A stretch of DNA of 64,000 bases from Deferribacteraceae bacterium (GTDB lineage Bacteria > Chrysiogenota > Deferribacteres > Deferribacterales > Deferrivibrionaceae): the NCBI GenBank assembly GCA_020054865.1, contig JAIHAR010000003.1, positions 39,645-103,644 of the forward strand, in the 5' to 3' direction. The translations under genes and the position numbers were made by a program. This document shows, piece by piece, positions 19,988 to 28,721 of the stretch (position 1 is its first letter; each line of letters opens with the position of its first letter). The notes beneath the pieces were generated by a model, which saw only the letters and a program-made list of their open reading frames with translations, had not been told where the DNA came from and did not search any database.

Positions 19988-20638
19988 ATGTACGAACATC
20001 TATTATCCTTGCAAAATAAGTTAGCAAAAAAAGTGATAATTTGTCCATATAAAAATAATATAAGACTTATTGGGGGTGTTGACGTTTCTTTTGAAAGGTT
20101 TTCAAATACGGGGTTTTGTTCTTTTGTTGTTTTGAATAAAAAATTTGAAATAGTTGAGGTTAAAAATGTAAAATTAACAGTAAAAATGCCTTATGTCCCC
20201 GGGCTTTTATCTTTCAGGGAGTTGCCTTTGATTTATCAGGCATACAAGAAATTGTCTTTTAAGCCGGATATAGTTTTTTGTGATTCGCAAGGGATAGCCC
20301 ATTCAAGAGGGTTAGGTCTTGCAAGTCATCTTGGAGTGGTATTAAACATTCCTGTTGTAGGTTGTGCCAAATCAAGGCTTGTAGGTGAGTATAACATACC
20401 GGGCAATAAAAAAGGAAATTACACATACTTGAAATACAGAGGGGAAAATGTGGGAGCAGTTTTGATAACCAAAGATAATTGCAAGCCAATGTTTATATCG
20501 CCAGGGCATTTAATTGATATAAAAACATCAATATTGACTGTATTAAAGTTTACAAAAAAATATAAAATACCTGAGCCTACAAGGGTAGCACATATTTTAT
20601 CAAATAGCTTCAGGCGTGAAGATTCAAATTTTTATTAG
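19988..20638 (+). CDS. nfi: endonuclease V (deoxyinosine 3' endonuclease)
   Basis: 216 aa; Nfi family pattern (GGVDVSF, FRE, GLASHLGV). Confidence 0.8.
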   Translation: MYEHLLSLQNKLAKKVIICPYKNNIRLIGGVDVSFERFSNTGFCSFVVLNKKFEIVEVKNVKLTVKMPYVPGLLSFRELPLIYQAYKKLSFKPDIVFCDSQGIAHSRGLGLASHLGVVLNIPVVGCAKSRLVGEYNIPGNKKGNYTYLKYRGENVGAVLITKDNCKPMFISPGHLIDIKTSILTVLKFTKKYKIPEPTRVAHILSNSFRREDSNFY

Positions 20639-21388
20639 TTAATTCAAGTCGTTTTCCTGAGTAGTATATTCAAAGGGCAAATCACAACCTTCAGGAATTT
20701 GAAATGGAATAGGGTATCTAATTCCTGCTTTGTGCGTAGCCTTAAGCCCATTGATTATTTCATCCTTCATTTTATAGGGGAATCCGACGGCAAGCTCGAA
20801 GTCCTGCGTCATAGCAAATCTTCTGTCCCCCAAACAGGGTATTTCGATTACAGGTTTGCCTTTTATGTATGTTTCTGCAACGGCTCGTGAGCAAACCCCG
20901 GCATCACCAGAAGAGCTGAAATCAAATTGTCCACCTTTTTCATATAAAAAAGCCTGTACCATTCTCATTGCCTGAGCAGTATTACAATAAAATACTACTA
21001 CGTCAGGCTCAATTCCTTCAATCGGTCTATTTAAAGGGTAGGTTAATACAGCCTTAATATCTTCATTTATTCTTGGCATATTTTGTTGCATATATTTTGC
21101 TGCATCTTTATCTTTTTGATAAATATTGCAATTGACTGTGCCTTCGATTACTCTTTCAGGTGTTTTTATCAAACCGGCACAGGATGCTCCCAACACACAG
21201 TAACTAAACTCTTTTGTTGCGATAGTCGACCACCCATAATATCTGGAATAAGCAATTTGCTGGCATACAGTTAACTTTTTATCTTTGACCTTTACTTTTA
21301 ATTCAGGTAATTCTTTTAAAAGATTTACTCCTACAGGGATAGTTTGAAGCCTTAAATATTTGTTTAATTCCTCAAATAAGTTTATCAT
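20639..21388 (-). CDS. DUF169-family protein
   Basis: 249 aa; recalled resemblance to DUF169; no catalytic motif recognised. Confidence 0.45.
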   Translation of the reverse strand: MINLFEELNKYLRLQTIPVGVNLLKELPELKVKVKDKKLTVCQQIAYSRYYGWSTIATKEFSYCVLGASCAGLIKTPERVIEGTVNCNIYQKDKDAAKYMQQNMPRINEDIKAVLTYPLNRPIEGIEPDVVVFYCNTAQAMRMVQAFLYEKGGQFDFSSSGDAGVCSRAVAETYIKGKPVIEIPCLGDRRFAMTQDFELAVGFPYKMKDEIINGLKATHKAGIRYPIPFQIPEGCDLPFEYTTQENDLN

Positions 21389-21879: not shown

Positions 21880-23802
21880 TTAAAGCCCTACAATTTTTGC
21901 AAAATGTCTTCGTGTTGTATCTTGCAGTTTATCAGCTACTTTAAATGCTTCTTTTAAAAGCTCCTGTTCATTTTTTGGGAGTGTATATGGGTCTAAATAA
22001 TGAGACGGCTTTTTGTTTTCATCTAATAGTTTTATCTCATTTTTCAGCCTTATATACGTAAAAAACTCAAAAGCGGCCTTAATATGCTCCAATGTGGCTG
22101 AATTAAAGATTCCTAATTCATGTAATTTGTCCAGTCTTTCCATTGTGTTAGTTTGCGGTAGACCATGTTCAAGGCAATACATTCTTATGCAGTCGACTAT
22201 AAAAATACTACCATTTTCCTTTACAGAAAGCTCACCTTTATGTTCTTCTTGATCAGAAGTAATAAATCTATTTAGAAGCCCCAGTGGGACTTTGTGTTTG
22301 TAGTCAAGCTCCATCATTTTAAATAAGAATAGCATATTATTTTTAATTTCTTCAAATATATGTTCTTTTAACTGCATGCAAAGTTTAGGTTCTCCCACCA
22401 GAGAAAAAAGGTCAAAAAATATTGTTGAATACCTGACACGTTGAGGCTCAGGAACTCTTATCCATTTGCTAACTCTCTTTTTCCATTCGGATATTTTGCC
22501 TCTCCATAATGGATTATTTGCCATAACTTTACCATTACAAAGAGGGTATCCTACTTCATTCAAGGCGTTTACCAGATATTCTGCAAAGGGTACAAAAAAG
22601 TTACTTACTTCGCCTTCCATTTCATTAGGGTAGTCTTCAAAAATCAGCCCATTATCCTGATCAGGGCCTAAAAGCATCTCCCTTCGGCCGCCACTACCCA
22701 TTATTATAAAGGAGTATTTGATATCTGGCAAAACACAGCCCTCTGAAAGACGTTTCTCCATAACAATTTCAAAGCACCTTTTTATGATATTGTGGTGAAT
22801 ATATGAAATTATCTCCATGGTTTCTACATGAGACCTGTTTTCCATCAAAAGAACTTTAGCAACCGAGGTTATTTCGTTTTTAACATTTTTTAATTCCTTG
22901 ATTGATGTTGCCTCTTTAACTTTTCCTACCAGAAGTACCGTTTTCTGACTTCTGAATTTCATCAGGTCTCTTACAGTTACAATTCCTATGATTTTATCAT
23001 TTTCCAGTACCGGAAGATGTCTTATGTTGTGGCTGATCATAAATGCTGCAACTTCATACATATATGATTCAGGGGATACGTAAAAAGGATCGGGAGTCAT
23101 TACCTCTTTTGCTTTCATATCTTTAAGGCATACCCCGGTATCTCTTGCCAAAACTTTTGTCACTAAATCCCTTTCCGTAATTATCCCTTTTAATTTTCCA
23201 TTACTATCACAAACAAGAAGCGAGCCTACCCCTTTTACAGTCATTATTTTTGCTATCTTACCTACTGTGGTATCCTCACTGCATACTTCTACAGGTGAAG
23301 ACATTATCTCTCTCACCTGCTTTTGGAAAGGGTATGCTTCAATTTGAGCTATAGGGTCAGAAGATTGTGACTTTACTACATCATGGTATAATTTCCTGAT
23401 TTTGGAAAAAACTGCCTTACTGAAAAATCTGGTAATTTCCGGGTACGATTGTGCCAGGTTGAGAATAACTTCTTTGGGAATCAAGATGCATTCTGTTTTA
23501 TCTACAGTCCTGGCACCTGCAGAGTAACCGCCATCAGTAAATATAGGTGTCCAGCCAAAGAATTCTCCATCTTTCCTGTAATCGACGACTATTTCTACCC
23601 CTTCTTCAGTTTCAGATATGATTTCCACTGCCCCTTTGTGAATAAAATAAAGGTAACCTGTAGGAGTGTCTTTTTGAGAAAATATTAATGTGTCAGCATC
23701 ATATGTTTTAAAAAGGCAGGTATCTTGGATTATTTTAAAATTATCTTCAGATATTACGTTGAAAGGTTTAACTGTTTTTAAGAAATCCAACATTGGTATC
23801 AT
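21880..23802 (-). CDS. cNMP-binding + tandem CBS + DUF294 nucleotidyltransferase signalling protein
   Basis: 640 aa; N-terminal CAP-like cNMP-binding fold, two CBS domains, NTase core GSGGRREMLLGPDQDNGLIFED, DUF294_C-like tail. Confidence 0.75.
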   Translation of the reverse strand: MIPMLDFLKTVKPFNVISEDNFKIIQDTCLFKTYDADTLIFSQKDTPTGYLYFIHKGAVEIISETEEGVEIVVDYRKDGEFFGWTPIFTDGGYSAGARTVDKTECILIPKEVILNLAQSYPEITRFFSKAVFSKIRKLYHDVVKSQSSDPIAQIEAYPFQKQVREIMSSPVEVCSEDTTVGKIAKIMTVKGVGSLLVCDSNGKLKGIITERDLVTKVLARDTGVCLKDMKAKEVMTPDPFYVSPESYMYEVAAFMISHNIRHLPVLENDKIIGIVTVRDLMKFRSQKTVLLVGKVKEATSIKELKNVKNEITSVAKVLLMENRSHVETMEIISYIHHNIIKRCFEIVMEKRLSEGCVLPDIKYSFIIMGSGGRREMLLGPDQDNGLIFEDYPNEMEGEVSNFFVPFAEYLVNALNEVGYPLCNGKVMANNPLWRGKISEWKKRVSKWIRVPEPQRVRYSTIFFDLFSLVGEPKLCMQLKEHIFEEIKNNMLFLFKMMELDYKHKVPLGLLNRFITSDQEEHKGELSVKENGSIFIVDCIRMYCLEHGLPQTNTMERLDKLHELGIFNSATLEHIKAAFEFFTYIRLKNEIKLLDENKKPSHYLDPYTLPKNEQELLKEAFKVADKLQDTTRRHFAKIVGL

Positions 23803-23808
23803 AAGATA

Positions 23809-24183
23809 TCAGTCAATTTCCTTTTTTTTCCCAAATATAGGATGAGCTTGTGATTTAATTATAAAATCACCGAAAATTTTAAACCATATTGTTACCCCGG
23901 CAATGCCTGTCCACTTTTGATAAGGGTAAGCCAGAAACAAGACGCCTATTATCGCCCATAATGTGGCAATTCCTGCCCCAAGATTGAGGATTCCAACAAA
24001 AGGAGCCCATTTTTTGGGGTTTTTGGGTGGCTCTCCTCTTTTTAAAGCCACATTCGAGTAATCTTTTTTTATAAAGATTGTGTAAGCCCTCCTAAGCCAG
24101 ATAAATGCCAACGGGAAAAGCGCAATAAATAAAATCCAAGTCACAGCCATATTGGTATCAATTATTAAATTATCCATATTCAC
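23809..24183 (-). CDS. small 2-TM membrane protein of unknown function
   Basis: 124 aa; two hydrophobic helices and a lysine-rich C-terminus; 6-nt gap to the downstream gene. Confidence 0.45.
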   Translation of the reverse strand: MNMDNLIIDTNMAVTWILFIALFPLAFIWLRRAYTIFIKKDYSNVALKRGEPPKNPKKWAPFVGILNLGAGIATLWAIIGVLFLAYPYQKWTGIAGVTIWFKIFGDFIIKSQAHPIFGKKKEID

Positions 24184-24281: not shown

Positions 24282-26087
24282 TTAGTGATCTACAGCGGCA
24301 CCAGCACCTTTAGGATAGCGAACGCTTTCTACCATTTCAGCTATATCATGAGGAACAGGTGTAGTCATGTTTTTCACAGCAAAGGCAACTATGAAGTTTA
24401 CAATTGCTCCTATTGTACCAAATGCATTTGGTTCAATACCAAGGAAGAAGTTTGGTTTGCCACCAAAAAGGCCAAGGAATTCAGTCCCTTTGATAAAGAA
24501 GATACCTTTGTGGGCAAAAACGTATAGCATTGTTACACCAATACCAGCTATCATACCGGCAATTGCACCCTGCCTATTCATAGTCTTGCTGAAGATACCC
24601 ATCATAAGTGCAGGGAATATTGAGCTTGCTGCAAGTCCAAATGCTATTGCAACGGTACCGGCAGCAAAGTCAGGAGGGTTCATACCAAGATAACCAGCAA
24701 CTACAATAGCACAAGCCATTACAATTCTTCCTGCCATAAGCTCCCCTTTTTCGGAAAGATCTTTCATGAACATGTTTTTCAACAGGTCATGTGAGATCGC
24801 TGATGATATTGCAAGCAAAAGACCAGCAGCAGTTGAAAGAGCAGCCGCAAGACCACCGGCAGCAACAAGGCCAATTACCCAGTTAGGAAGTTTAGCGATT
24901 TCAGGGTTAGCAAGAACCATAATATCGTTATTAACTGAAAGTTCGTTCCCTTTCCAGCCTGCAGCTTCTGCCTTTGCCAGGAAGTCTTTATCTTTGGATT
25001 TGTCATTGTAATACTGGATACGTCCATCTCCATTTTTGTCAGTAAACTTAAGCAAGCCAGTTACTTCCCAGCGCTTCATCCAGTTTGGACGTTCATCAAT
25101 CAGAATGCTTGATTCTGGAGCAAAAACATCTCCACCCTTAACAACAGCCTTGTTAACAGTTGCATGAAGATTAAGTCTTGCCATAGCAGCAACAGAAGGA
25201 GCTGTTGTGTAAAGGATAGCTATGAATACAAGAGCCCAACCGGCGGAGCTTCTTGCATCCCTTACCTTTGGTACAGTAAAGAAGCGTATAATAACGTGAG
25301 GAAGCCCCGCAGTACCAATCATCAAAGACATGGTGTAAACAAACATATTCAGTTTACTTAATCTTGGGGTATTAACGTAAGAAGCAAAGCCAAGATCTTT
25401 TACAATATGGTCAAGTTTTTCAAGAAGATACATGTCTGAGCCTTCAAACCCTGAGCTAAGGCCAAACTGAGGAATAGGGTTGCCGGTAAGATGTAAAGAT
25501 ATGAAAATCGCTGGAATAGTGTAAGCTAAAATTAATACACAGTACTGTGCTACCTGAGTGTATGTAATTCCTTTCATACCACCAAAAACTGCATATACAA
25601 AAACTATTGCCATACCAATTAAGACACCAAGGTTATTAGAAACGCCCAAGAATCTTGAAAAGGCAACACCAACGCCTGTCATCTGACCAATAATATAAGT
25701 GGTGGAAGCAATAAGAAGACAAATAACAGCAACAATAGCTGCTCCATCAGAATAATATCTTGTCTTAAAAAACTCTGGTACAGTGTATTTCCCAAATTTT
25801 CTCAAATATGGGGCAAGAAGAAGGGCAAGAAGAACATATCCACCTGTCCAACCCAGCAAAAACACTGCTCCACCATATCCCATAAATGCAATAAGACCCG
25901 CCATAGAGATGAAAGACGCTGCTGACATCCAGTCTGCACCAGTTGCCATACCATTAACTACAGGGTGAACACCACCACCTGCTACGTAAAACTCTTTAGT
26001 GCTACCAGCACGAGACCAGATAGCAATACCGATATAAAGTGCAAAAGTAAGACCAACAATTATATACGTTGTAACCTGTAAACTCAT
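24282..26087 (-). CDS. actP: cation/acetate symporter ActP (sodium:solute symporter family)
   Basis: 601 aa; 13-14 TM helices; SSS family pattern; preceded by a DUF485 gene as in the yjcH-actP arrangement. Confidence 0.85.
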   Translation of the reverse strand: MSLQVTTYIIVGLTFALYIGIAIWSRAGSTKEFYVAGGGVHPVVNGMATGADWMSAASFISMAGLIAFMGYGGAVFLLGWTGGYVLLALLLAPYLRKFGKYTVPEFFKTRYYSDGAAIVAVICLLIASTTYIIGQMTGVGVAFSRFLGVSNNLGVLIGMAIVFVYAVFGGMKGITYTQVAQYCVLILAYTIPAIFISLHLTGNPIPQFGLSSGFEGSDMYLLEKLDHIVKDLGFASYVNTPRLSKLNMFVYTMSLMIGTAGLPHVIIRFFTVPKVRDARSSAGWALVFIAILYTTAPSVAAMARLNLHATVNKAVVKGGDVFAPESSILIDERPNWMKRWEVTGLLKFTDKNGDGRIQYYNDKSKDKDFLAKAEAAGWKGNELSVNNDIMVLANPEIAKLPNWVIGLVAAGGLAAALSTAAGLLLAISSAISHDLLKNMFMKDLSEKGELMAGRIVMACAIVVAGYLGMNPPDFAAGTVAIAFGLAASSIFPALMMGIFSKTMNRQGAIAGMIAGIGVTMLYVFAHKGIFFIKGTEFLGLFGGKPNFFLGIEPNAFGTIGAIVNFIVAFAVKNMTTPVPHDIAEMVESVRYPKGAGAAVDH

Positions 26088-26099
26088 ATTATCCCCTCC

Positions 26100-26360
26100 T
26101 TAATCTTCTTCTACGTCAAATTCTTTGTCAATTTTACCAATAAGTTTTGCGTAGATAAATATCAATGCTACGAAAACATAGATAGAGCCCTGATGCGCAA
26201 ACCAAAATCCGAGAGGGGTTCCACCCAGTTTAATATTGTTGAGAGGCTCAACAAAAATAATGGCTAAAACATAACCGAATATAAACCAGATTATTAAAAT
26301 GTTACGAATTAGAGCCAAATTTTTTTTCCAATAGGCTTCGAGTCTTTCCTTGTCTACCAT
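26100..26360 (-). CDS. DUF485 (YjcH-like) small membrane protein
   Basis: 86 aa; two TM helices; 12 nt upstream of actP; RBS GTGAGGTG. Confidence 0.75.
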   Translation of the reverse strand: MVDKERLEAYWKKNLALIRNILIIWFIFGYVLAIIFVEPLNNIKLGGTPLGFWFAHQGSIYVFVALIFIYAKLIGKIDKEFDVEED

Positions 26361-26561
26361 AAAAACACCTCACTTAAATATTAAGTTAAAAAAAAGTGTA
26401 CCTTCGTTGCCTTGGCACCTGCCCGACCGCTTCTTTTCATCACCTCCTTATTATTTTTGCAAAGCAGGTAATGTATCTTCATAAAATCCCCCTATGTGGA
26501 AATTAATATAATATTGTTTTATTAATGTCAATAATTAATTTGAGATAAATATTTGAATTTA

Positions 26562-26599
26562 AGTGTACTTGGTATACTGTACACTGGATACTGTATACA
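26562..26599. promoter_or_regulatory. cluster of TGTAYAC-type palindromes / tandem 14-mers (candidate operator) between divergent actP operon and acs-like gene
   Basis: AGTGTAC-N10-GTACACT inverted repeat (26562-26585), palindrome TGTATACA (26592-26599), direct repeat TGG(T)ATACTGTAYAC x2. Confidence 0.4.
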
Positions 26600-26781
26600 A
26601 TATTTTATAAAATATTGATTAATTTATTTAAAAATATAATAAAATATCTAACAGTGTTATAGATATGCGATTATTTCTAAAAAAAATATATAACATTTTT
26701 TTATTTTAATTTTGATTAATTATAAAAAATGCTATTGATTGTTATTTTGGTTCAAAAATAAGCAAATTTTCAAAATTTTAT

Positions 26782-26809
26782 TTTACAACCTTGCCGAAAT
26801 ATATAAAAT
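26782..26809 (+). promoter_or_regulatory. candidate sigma70 promoter for acs-like gene (TTTACA 26782-26787; 16-nt spacer; TAAAAT 26804-26809)
   Basis: Hexamers about 40 nt upstream of ATG 26847 (RBS AGGGGGA). Confidence 0.35.
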
Positions 26810-26846
26810 ACCAATGGGGAAAACTCAAACTATAGGGGGATGTGAT

Positions 26847-28721
26847 ATGGTTTACGAGCTTATTAATGAGGCAAATAAAAAGTATAAGAGGCATTTTCTT
26901 ACACCTGAAGATATTGATAATCTGAAAAAGATGCCGTATATGGATGTGGCTGATTATGTCGGGAAGAATTTTATCGAGTGGGAAGAGCAATATAGTCAGG
27001 TATTTGAATACAACAAGCCGCCAAGGTATACATTTTTTAAAGGTGGAAGACTCAATCCATTTTATAATATCCTCGAAAAACATCTTTATAGTAAAAATAA
27101 AAACAAGGCTGCAATAATATGGAGGGGCTCTGACTATACCGAAAAAATATTTACATATCAGTCTATCGCATTTGAGGCTTCAAAACTTGCTTACGCGTTC
27201 AAAAAATTAGGGGTTAAAAAAGGGGATAGGGTACTGATTTATTTACCCAATATTCCTGAAGCAGTAATTACAATGCTTGCTTGTGTAAGAATAGGCGCTG
27301 TCCATGCCCTGTATCATTATAGCTATTCTGCCGAGGCTTTGAAGGAGAGGATAGAAGACTGTGAGCCCTCTATAATTGTTACAACAAATTATAGTCTTAC
27401 AGGTAATGAGCTTGATGTTAAGACTAAAGTGGATGAAGCCTTGAAAAAATCAAATTATCAGCCAAAACATGTTGTTGTAGTGGAAAGGATTCCTAAAAAA
27501 GCACATATGAAGCCACTGAGGGATTTATGGTATCACGATTTACTAAGTGATACCGATTTTAAAGAAGCAATGACACTTGAGCCCACAATCTTAAACAGTG
27601 ATGAACCTTTATTTATAATGATTACCACCACTCATTTTGTTGAACCAAAAGGGCTTGCCTACAGTATTGCGGGGTTTCTTGCCTGGGCACATTTTACTTT
27701 TAAACTAATTTTTGACCCAAAAGATGAAGATACAATCTGGAATATGTCTGATGTGGCCTGGATGAATAGCCACAACTATAAAATTTATGGTCCTCTGATG
27801 GCAGGAACCACTTCAGTTATGTTTGAAGACTCGATACATATGCAAAATGCAAGAAGGTTTTATGGTATTGTGGAAAGGTATAATGTAAACAAATGTTATA
27901 CTTCTCCCAGAGTTATAAGGGCACTAATGAGTGCGGATATGAGAAAAAGGGTATTTGAACGTCTTGATAATCTCGAGCTTTTTTTTCTGGGCGGTGAACA
28001 GATTGATGAGGAGCTTTTGAACTGGCTATTTAAAAAACTTGGTAAGAGTAAAATGCCTGTATTAAATGTGTATTCTGCAACTGAGCTTGGTTCGGCGATA
28101 ACTGCTCAGTTACCAGGGTATTCTGAAGTTAAACAAAACTCGGTTGGTCAGCCTTTGCCAGGTGTTGATCTTGGCATTTATGACAGCATCACCAAGACAA
28201 AAATAAAATGTCATAACGAAAAGGGGCTTGTATCTATTGAAAAACCACTGATGTCAATGTGCAGCAAACTTTGTCATGGAGAAGAATTGTTTTATAAGAC
28301 TTTTTGGAAAAATTTTGACGGTAAGTATGTTTTCAGAATAGGTGACGCAGGATATTTTGATGAAGAGAGTCATTTTTATCTCACGGGAAGAATTGATGAC
28401 GTCATACACGTCGGTGGAAAGAGGATCAATTTGCAACAGGTTGAAGATGCCATCAATAAACATAAGCTTATAAAAGAATCTGCTATTATTATACTAAATG
28501 ATGAGAAAAAAGGGGATTCTATTATTGCATTTTGTGTTTTAAAGAAAAATGTGGATGAAAGTTCATACAGCTTGATAATAGATGAAATAAATGAGGTTAT
28601 TATAGAAGAGCTTGGTGAGTCGGTGCTGCCTCAGGAAATAAAATTTGTGAGAGTATTGCCAAAAGGGGCGGAAGGGAATATTTTGAAAGATTTGCTAAAA
28701 GAGATAGCTATGCAAATGTAA
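26847..28721 (+). CDS. acetyl-CoA synthetase-family (AMP-forming) paralog with degenerate P-loop and Lys->Asn at the catalytic position
   Basis: 624 aa from the RBS-supported ATG; Acs-like A7/A8 block (GDAGYFDEESHFYLTGRIDDVIHVGGKRI); degenerate motifs detailed in findings. Confidence 0.75.
   Translation: MVYELINEANKKYKRHFLTPEDIDNLKKMPYMDVADYVGKNFIEWEEQYSQVFEYNKPPRYTFFKGGRLNPFYNILEKHLYSKNKNKAAIIWRGSDYTEKIFTYQSIAFEASKLAYAFKKLGVKKGDRVLIYLPNIPEAVITMLACVRIGAVHALYHYSYSAEALKERIEDCEPSIIVTTNYSLTGNELDVKTKVDEALKKSNYQPKHVVVVERIPKKAHMKPLRDLWYHDLLSDTDFKEAMTLEPTILNSDEPLFIMITTTHFVEPKGLAYSIAGFLAWAHFTFKLIFDPKDEDTIWNMSDVAWMNSHNYKIYGPLMAGTTSVMFEDSIHMQNARRFYGIVERYNVNKCYTSPRVIRALMSADMRKRVFERLDNLELFFLGGEQIDEELLNWLFKKLGKSKMPVLNVYSATELGSAITAQLPGYSEVKQNSVGQPLPGVDLGIYDSITKTKIKCHNEKGLVSIEKPLMSMCSKLCHGEELFYKTFWKNFDGKYVFRIGDAGYFDEESHFYLTGRIDDVIHVGGKRINLQQVEDAINKHKLIKESAIIILNDEKKGDSIIAFCVLKKNVDESSYSLIIDEINEVIIEELGESVLPQEIKFVRVLPKGAEGNILKDLLKEIAMQM

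Follow-up and report, generated by a model that had tools for sequence, protein, structure and literature searches.

Characterised ANL enzymes, among them acetyl-CoA synthetase (Acs), PrpE and luciferase, lose adenylation by orders of magnitude when the A10 lysine is replaced by alanine. This lysine is the catalytic residue that acetyltransferases target to turn Acs off (PMC11910552), and the A3 and A10 loops have been described as strictly required across ANL enzymes (bioRxiv 10.64898/2026.07.06.736331). Here we analyse a stretch of 64,000 nucleotides (the window) from a Deferribacteraceae bacterium (GenBank assembly GCA_020054865.1, contig JAIHAR010000003.1, positions 39,645 to 103,644), which contains a gene for an Acs-like protein that has neither the glycine-rich A3 loop nor the A10 lysine. 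It belongs to a conserved subfamily, referred to below as the Lys-less family, in which both are missing.

Departures from the standard ANL reaction are known. PtmA2 and AuaE, of Streptomyces and myxobacterial secondary metabolism, are non-adenylating members that keep the thioester or acyl-transfer step. Outside the ANL fold, HisZ is a catalytically inactive paralogue of histidyl-tRNA synthetase that regulates ATP-phosphoribosyltransferase. In medium-chain acyl-CoA synthetases, and in Trp-to-Gly variants of Acs, a small residue at the position of Trp414 enlarges the acyl pocket. A review describes PtmA1 and PtmA2 as appearing to split the two half-reactions between them, which is a natural precedent for an ANL protein that does not adenylate (PMC6594144).

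Loss of the A3 loop and the A10 lysine

The gene is an intact open reading frame (ORF) encoding 624 amino acids, with an AGGGGGA Shine-Dalgarno (SD) sequence 6 nt 5′ of its ATG (Table 1). The independently called Deferrivibrio orthologue has the same Met start and the same length. Three Pfam domains, ACAS_N, AMP-binding (PF00501, 191 bits) and AMP-binding_C (PF13193, 54 bits), all scored above their gathering cutoffs, the last of them ending at profile position 75 of 76, which is residue 610 of the protein. When PDB sequences were searched with phmmer, residues 17–621 paired with residues 18–619 of Salmonella enterica Acs (2p20, E = 7e-99). Both results bear out a first-pass annotation, made from the DNA sequence alone, which had assigned the protein to the Acs family and regarded it as alignable along its length. 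The top NCBIfam models were two acetate--CoA ligase models, both below their curated cutoffs (TIGR02188, 501 bits against 725; NF001208, 507 against 657), and PrpE and other ANL family models scored lower still. Identity to canonical Acs was 31–39%. The protein stops 3 residues past the 'KEIA' helix, and the C-terminal tail of about 30 residues found in canonical Acs is missing. Its C-terminal end, LLKEIAMQM (28692–28718), is identical in the window, in Deferrivibrio, in a Calditerrivibrio-like metagenome-assembled genome (MAG) and in Denitrovibrio.

Relatives were drawn from a search of 5.8 billion proteins. P0001 to P0049 are 99–42% identical to the window protein and include sequences from Deferrivibrio, Calditerrivibrio, Denitrovibrio acetiphilus, Seleniivibrio, Deferribacter desulfuricans, D. 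autotrophicus, D. abyssi and Flexistipes. P0050 to P0054 (37–39% identical) come from Desulfuromonas, including Desulfuromonas acetoxidans DSM 684, and other Desulfuromonadaceae, and from P0055 onward the sequences are canonical Acs (34–39% identical). In MAFFT alignments every canonical sequence has YTSG[ST]TGKPKG, TWWQTETG and PKTRSGKIMRR, and all of P0001 to P0054 lack the Gly-rich loop and the A10 Lys. Residue columns were then compared between clade A (50 sequences, including the window protein), clade B (5 sequences, the Desulfuromonas group) and 66 canonical Acs. Residue numbers such as K609, V386 and W414 follow S. enterica Acs.

At A3, whose Gly-rich loop holds the beta and gamma phosphates in canonical enzymes, phmmer paired 'plfimittthfvepkg' of the window protein with 'plfilytsgstgkpkg' of S. 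enterica Acs. In clade A, G266 is replaced by Thr in all 50 sequences, T268 by a hydrophobic residue (Met, Phe or Leu) and K270 by Glu in 37 of the 50, and G269 is variable; T264, P271 and K272 are retained. The PROSITE pattern PS00455 matched 61/66 canonical Acs against 0/50 in clade A and 0/5 in clade B.

At A10, 'lpkgaegnilkdllkeia' was paired with 'lpktrsgkimrrilrkia', so that Asn611 sits where the catalytic, acetylated Lys609 stands in S. enterica Acs. The K609 column is hypervariable in clade A (Val 13, Ser 8, Glu 7, Ala 5, Asn 4, Ile 4, Gln 3, Thr 2, Gly 2, Asp 1, His 1) and holds Lys or Arg in no sequence, although P603, K604 and G608 around it are invariant. As R606, S607 and R613 have become Pro, Asp and Asp across clade A, the A10 loop shifts from strongly basic to neutral or acidic. 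Because Lys609 is the acetylation site, Pat/AcuA control cannot apply to the Acs-like protein.

A shifted alignment was considered as the cause of the missing Lys and rejected: phmmer, Pfam and two MAFFT runs agree without gaps, anchored by P603, K604, G608, I610 and R612, and the phmmer alignment is ungapped around both A3 and A10. The degenerate loop (27621–27653) and the Asn codon (28677–28679) lie exactly where the first-pass annotation had put them, and neither profile nor pairwise alignment restored a Lys or a canonical P-loop. Nor is the observation a sequencing artefact, as an independent assembly holds a 99%-identical protein and orthologues at 81–42% identity carry the same changes.

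A narrow family under selection, with its ligand sites retained

In a neighbour-joining tree all Lys-less sequences form one clade (100/100 bootstraps) with a long stem (0.35), which has evolved faster overall (root-to-tip distance 1.72 versus 1.13). Among 1.84 billion cluster representatives, a profile search picked up one Lys-less representative (P0133) besides clades A and B, and since 50% clustering leaves only three representatives (P0047, P0132 and P0133) the family is narrow. The first-pass annotation had proposed a possible pseudo-enzyme or altered chemistry, and a phylogeny as a check. It was right that this is an Acs family protein without the Gly-rich P-loop and the A10 Lys. The tree, which we ran, shows that it is no isolated oddity but part of a conserved, monophyletic subfamily in Deferribacterota and Desulfuromonas. 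A scan of genome contigs with the clade alignment was dominated by canonical Acs, through the pattern NKAA[IL]IWxG; it returned 2 clade members and supplied the canonical acs loci used for synteny below.

One long sequence, P0131 (1273 aa), was examined as a fusion with a Lys-less variant and rejected as such, its second module keeping the A10 Lys. It joins a canonical PrpE-like module in tandem to an Acs-like one whose P-loop is partly degenerate (YTAEASGNPKG). P0131 and P0137 branch beside the Lys-less clade in the tree, and P0131 may be an intermediate state.

The family is under strong purifying selection. Between the window protein and its Deferrivibrio orthologue synonymous sites are saturated (proportion of synonymous differences, pS = 0.84), with a nonsynonymous divergence (dN) of 0.12, and the ratio of nonsynonymous to synonymous divergence (dN/dS) is 0.08 between the orthologues of two Deferribacter species. 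Constraint on the C-terminal domain, the site of A10, is no weaker than on the remainder of the protein. Thus canonical catalytic residues are missing from a protein that is nevertheless under purifying selection, the combination expected of a pseudoenzyme. AlphaFold2, given the family alignment, predicted the structure with confidence (mean pLDDT 88.5, pTM 0.83) except at the hinge/A8 hairpin (517–525) and a loop at 552–556, and the top PDB matches of the model are S. enterica Acs (1PG3/1PG4, TM 0.82). The model lies about 5 Å root-mean-square deviation from S. enterica Acs and AMP/CoA-bound entries versus about 10 Å from the C. neoformans entries; this domain arrangement was not used as evidence, because AlphaFold reproduces the conformers on which it was trained. 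The two-domain fold, the AMP and ribose ligands and the hinge Asp that define the ANL superfamily are all present.

A decaying pseudogene, or an assembly or sequencing error, would account for the missing motifs and for nothing beyond them. We give this explanation practically no weight: over 50 clusters, drawn from cultured genomes as well as independent assemblies, have an intact ORF of full length, dN is low where synonymous sites are saturated, and the predicted fold is confident. It was rejected on the conservation and the dN/dS ratio.

The residues that have been kept are informative. E388, T416, E417, D500, R515, D517, G524 and R526 are present in 49–50 of the 50 clade-A sequences (T416 and E417, which are phosphate and Mg ligands, in all 50), and T264, P271, K272, W309, H313 and G387 are also among those kept. 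Thus clade A has lost its adenylation determinants and kept the hinge and the A8 Gly and Arg, as expected of a PtmA2-type protein; with Ala or Ser at G524, the Desulfuromonas group shows less of a resemblance. Two A8 changes are specific to clade A and found in all 50 sequences, N521 to His and H525 to Lys or Arg (Lys in the window protein).

Elsewhere the site has been remodelled. V386 and W414, which together mark an acetate-sized acyl pocket, are each present in 66/66 canonical Acs, and the window protein and clade A have neither. The first is Gly (Table 1) and the second is Ser or Thr in 50/50 clade-A sequences (Ser410 in the window protein) and mostly Gly in Desulfuromonas. Contacts to the CoA nucleotide have changed in clade A, with F163 replaced by His (50/50), G165 by Ser and R191 deleted. 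New conserved basic residues have appeared in all three Lys-less lineages, at K599 and R602 of the window protein, just before A10, and at its positions 366–367. K525 in A8, which is absent from the Desulfuromonas group, and K554 are further ones.

Judged by these alignments, the adenylation-specific elements are lost, and the residues that hold AMP and, in clade A, those of the thioester-forming conformation are under constraint. The acyl pocket of clade A is predicted to be wider and more polar than an acetate pocket. The loss of both elements, and the drift of the Lys column between invariant neighbours, make the absence of canonical adenylation the most economical reading. Conservation of the AMP-site and pocket residues suggests that a nucleotide and an acyl ligand are still bound. 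We therefore favour, with moderate confidence, the reading that the Lys-less family does not perform canonical ATP-dependent adenylation and would be a selected, ligand-binding descendant of Acs.

Gene neighbourhood and hosts

In the window a row of minus-strand genes runs divergently from the Acs-like gene (Table 1), and the arrangement in Deferrivibrio is identical. The first-pass annotation had named the divergent neighbour actP, a label that did not hold. The gene belongs to the VC_2705 symporter family; ActP models gave only 145–178 bits against cutoffs of 750–1099, and the small partner is DUF4212/TIGR03647 and not DUF485 (YjcH). On these scores the symporter is related to ActP without being an ActP equivalog. 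The small membrane protein encoded next to it has a counterpart of 84% identity at the corresponding site in Deferrivibrio; Denitrovibrio has a 75-aa ORF in this position.

Table 1. Features of the Acs-like gene and its surroundings. Positions are those of the window, except in the last row, where they refer to the loci named.
Feature	Position	Strand	Basis or remark
Acs-like gene (clade A)	26847..28721	+	ORF, Pfam architecture, alignment to S. enterica Acs, clade-wide motifs
Degenerate A3 phosphate-binding loop ITTTHFVEPKG (canonical YTSGSTGKPKG)	27621..27653	+	Residues 259-269; phmmer and MAFFT
Gly382 at acyl-pocket position V386	27990..27992	+	Gly in 50/50 clade A and all clade B
A5 motif VYSATELG (canonical TWWQTETG)	28068..28091	+	W414 replaced by Ser; alignment
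A8/hinge block GRIDDVIHVGGKR	28386..28424	+	R515, D517 (hinge), G524 and R526 kept; alignment
A10 loop PKGAEGNILKD (canonical PKTRSGKIMRR)	28659..28691	+	Asn611 in place of Lys609
Divergent intergenic region, DUF4212 to Acs-like gene	26361..26846	.	Ribosome-binding site 26834-26840; weak -35/-10 match 26782-26809
DUF4212 small symporter subunit (TIGR03647)	26100..26360	-	NCBIfam match
VC_2705-family sodium/solute symporter	24282..26087	-	TIGR03648, 815 bits vs cutoff 321
Small predicted membrane protein, 124 aa, without family match	23809..24183	-	Between symporter and DUF294
Putative signalling nucleotidyltransferase: cNMP-binding, two CBS, DUF294, DUF294_C	21880..23802	-	Domain matches
Stand-alone CBS-pair protein, 138 aa	21385..21801	-	Domain match
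DUF169 protein	20639..21388	-	Overlaps CBS-pair gene by 4 nt
Endonuclease V (EndoV)	19988..20638	+	Beside cluster
CBS-pair orthologues	L001 11905-12306; L003 11915-12322; L004 11910-12314; L007 11888-12292; L008 9886-10290; L009 9802-10203

The most constant partner of the Acs-like gene is the CBS-pair gene, as its orthologues (136–141 aa, 48–86% identity) lie directly downstream, 12–30 nt 3′ of the Acs-like gene, in six loci. All the clade-A lineages examined have inherited the CBS-pair protein together with the Lys-less homologue, and the CBS-pair gene was not seen beside canonical acs in 78 other loci. The CBS-pair protein is the better conserved of the two: against Deferribacter desulfuricans it is 63% identical and the Acs homologue 42%. 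In Denitrovibrio the genes for DUF4212, the symporter (SSF), a small ORF, DUF294, the Acs-like protein and the CBS-pair protein follow one another on one strand. The order in Deferribacter is EndoV, Acs-like, CBS, DUF169; because DUF169 and EndoV flank the pair there as well, the neighbourhood must be older than the local inversion in the window. Only the Acs-like and CBS pair is present in the Calditerrivibrio-like, Deferribacterales-MAG and Seleniivibrio loci.

The gene for the DUF294 nucleotidyltransferase adjoins the Acs-like gene in Denitrovibrio. In a Desulfuromonas-type locus (L005, 2286–4870) it lies 2 kb away, and a gene for an RNase_T (DnaQ-like exonuclease) protein overlaps the start of the Acs-like gene by 4 nt. 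In a Desulfovibrionaceae locus (L041, 8001–14109) a canonical acs whose P-loop and Lys are intact is followed in order by DUF4212, a VC_2705 symporter (56% identity) and DUF294, and canonical acs adjoins DUF294 in three other Desulfobacterota loci (L017, L019 and L026). The uncharacterised DUF294 nucleotidyltransferase thus recurs as a neighbour of Acs of both kinds, normal and Lys-less. Since a canonical acs occupies the same module elsewhere, the Lys-less family derives from the acs of a carboxylate-uptake module and has stayed in its slot. No second ANL gene was found in the window, nor within 8–10 kb in eight related loci, and tblastn with canonical Acs detected no further Acs homologue in the 64 kb, in agreement with the first reading of the DNA.

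The signalling-type neighbours (the CBS-pair protein and the cNMP/CBS/DUF294 protein), together with the loss of the catalytic Lys and the P-loop, would suit a structural pseudoenzyme that binds no ligand and serves as a scaffold with the Acs fold. However, nucleotide-site and pocket residues that stay invariant across ~42–48% identity and two phyla are unexpected without ligand binding, and dN/dS is ~0.08. We regard such a scaffold as very improbable.

The intergenic region between the divergent genes was searched for control elements. The first-pass annotation had credited the Acs-like gene with its own promoter and ribosome-binding site. The latter is there; the promoter is merely a consensus match, and such matches are no commoner in this region than in shuffled sequence. 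An Rfam scan of the region gave no match. Although the intergenic region of Deferrivibrio essentukiensis has otherwise diverged, it conserves a 27-nt block, GTATACTGTACACTGGATACTGTATAC (26572–26598 in the window), in which two GTATAC palindromes flank a TGTACA-like core. This block could serve the divergent promoters as an operator. Upstream of DUF4212 (~26400–26450, read on the minus strand), a perfect SD-like AAGGAGGTGAT precedes a GC-rich GGTCGGGCAGGTGCC, both conserved in Deferrivibrio. A 19-codon ORF behind this SD was discarded, since it is not conserved and its ATG is ATA in Deferrivibrio. The two elements may form a leader or regulatory RNA of the symporter operon.

The hosts of the Lys-less family are anaerobic acetate-oxidising respirers. 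The textbook example of succinyl-CoA:acetate CoA-transferase as the route of acetate activation is Desulfuromonas acetoxidans (PMC9768450). AMP-forming activation costs two ATP equivalents, of which the CoA-transferase saves one, and the latter route has been deemed optimal for anaerobic acetate oxidisers (PMC9768450). Given this route, a relaxed need for the ATP-costly Acs is plausible in these lineages.

RefSeq calls the orthologues only 'AMP-binding protein', UniRef 'acetate--CoA ligase', and the D. desulfuricans orthologue (P0047, BAI80330, at 0.85 Mb of 2.23 Mb) is an 'acetyl-CoA synthetase' in its original record. The genome paper of this organism, which grows on acetate and propionate, cites a single Acs (DEFDS_0854) plus AckA-Pta (PMC2885270). 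BAI80330 is very probably DEFDS_0854, as its position at 0.85 Mb fits the locus tag. With one Acs cited and the orthologue carrying that name, it may be the sole Acs-type gene in D. desulfuricans, and the description of the window gene as a paralog is accordingly unsupported. In D. autotrophicus two genes are annotated as Acs (PMC6896113), one of which is probably a member of the Lys-less family. On the motif evidence the 'acetate--CoA ligase' label would be wrong, or at least premature, and the genome papers that call the gene 'acetyl-CoA synthetase' are probably wrong about its function. Our literature search found no description of Lys-less Acs homologues and no papers joining DUF294 with Acs, and the Deferrivibrio and Deferribacter papers are silent on the gene.

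Possible roles and comparison with known systems

What might a non-adenylating Acs do in such a module? The Acs-like protein would bind an adenine nucleotide or an acyl-adenylate-like ligand, and also an acyl group of greater size or polarity than acetate, without activating it at the expense of ATP. Together with the CBS-pair partner it might then regulate the carboxylate-uptake module as its nucleotide- and acyl-sensing unit, in the manner of HisZ. Alternatively, again with the CBS-pair partner, it might perform the thioester half-reaction only, as PtmA2 does. We lean slightly toward the sensing role, since the neighbourhood encodes no further ANL enzyme as a source of acyl-AMP. The half-reaction has further difficulties: there is no known acyl-AMP donor, and both the CoA-nucleotide contacts of clade A and, in the Desulfuromonas group, G524 have been altered.

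Several observations weigh against a loss of canonical adenylation. In Denitrovibrio the gene occupies the position of a working acs inside the transporter operon, which, read most simply, would mean that the imported acid is still trapped as a CoA thioester. The Mg-binding E417, mainly relevant to ATP chemistry, is invariant. The new basic residues K599, R602, K525 and K554 could compensate for the lost Lys. Finally, the gene is apparently the sole one of Acs type in D. desulfuricans, which grows on acetate and propionate, though AckA-Pta is also annotated there.

The same observations would fit an enzyme that still carries out the whole AMP-forming acyl-CoA synthetase reaction on another substrate, such as a C3–C6 or polar short-chain acid brought in by the symporter. 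Its catalysis would have been re-established around relocated basic residues and a phosphate loop of non-canonical sequence. The gene is in the same genomic slot as canonical acs, T416, D500, R515 and the hinge D517 are invariant along with E417, and G382 and Ser/Thr410 in the pocket are conserved as a real substrate site would be. This is the alternative that we take most seriously, although we consider it rather unlikely. Both adenylation-specific elements have gone at once, and the Lys position has become hypervariable instead of being swapped for another fixed residue. K599 and R602 are found in all three Lys-less lineages, but K525 is not in the Desulfuromonas group. The severe effect of Lys-to-Ala mutations in other ANL enzymes also argues against it, as do the cheaper routes of acetate activation open to the hosts.

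A more radical possibility, for which we see only a slim chance, is a re-wired system of carboxylate activation in the anaerobic acetate oxidisers of Deferribacterota and Desulfuromonas, in which this Acs descendant makes acyl-CoA by non-canonical chemistry without P-loop or A10 Lys, with the CBS-pair protein as a nucleotide-dependent gatekeeper. Either a single-conformation mechanism would use the relocated basic residues, or acyl-AMP or acyl-phosphate would be accepted from another protein of the module, for example the DUF294 nucleotidyltransferase. Either route, if true, would add a new means of activating short-chain acids, perhaps at a lower ATP cost.

If instead, as we favour, the Lys-less family cannot adenylate, metabolic reconstructions of acetate-oxidising respirers will need revision. 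This Acs-derived lineage of two phyla is strongly selected and has kept the rest of the active site without the A3 loop and the A10 Lys, and it can serve as a natural experiment on the uses of the ANL fold minus adenylation. It also offers a handle on an uncharacterised module in which Acs goes with a VC_2705 symporter, DUF294 and CBS proteins. The interest of the family lies in its Acs ancestry, its presence in two phyla of acetate oxidisers and its link to this transporter and signalling module. Non-adenylating ANL enzymes are already known, and what appears to be new here is a conserved Lys-less subfamily derived from Acs.

Compared with canonical Acs, the protein has the same three domains, alignable length (to residue 621) and predicted fold (TM 0.82), and the residues of the AMP site, the hinge and the A8 Gly/Arg pair. 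Its partners, the VC_2705 symporter and DUF294, also flank canonical acs in other bacteria. It differs in having no Gly-rich A3 and no Lys609, an A10 loop of inverted charge, an opened pocket, R191 deleted, F163 changed to His and no C-terminal tail. Medium-chain acyl-CoA synthetases and the Trp-to-Gly variants of Acs share a small residue at Trp414 with the family (Ser or Thr in clade A, Gly in the Desulfuromonas group), but they retain canonical A3 and A10 and are complete ligases.

The closest parallels in function would be PtmA2 and HisZ. In losing A3 and A10 and keeping A5, A7, A8 and the hinge, clade A would be compatible with the PtmA2 pattern of adenylation lost and thioester step kept. 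In contrast to PtmA2, which has a dedicated adenylating paralogue in its cluster, the Acs-like gene has no second ANL gene near it, and the Lys-less family is derived from Acs, is part of central and not secondary metabolism, and is linked with a transporter and with CBS and DUF294 proteins. HisZ may offer an analogy, as it derives from an adenylate-forming enzyme and, with catalysis lost but the ligand site preserved, has been retained by selection as a sensing subunit. However, HisZ has a class II aminoacyl-tRNA synthetase fold and not an ANL fold, and it regulates a partner enzyme, ATP-phosphoribosyltransferase.

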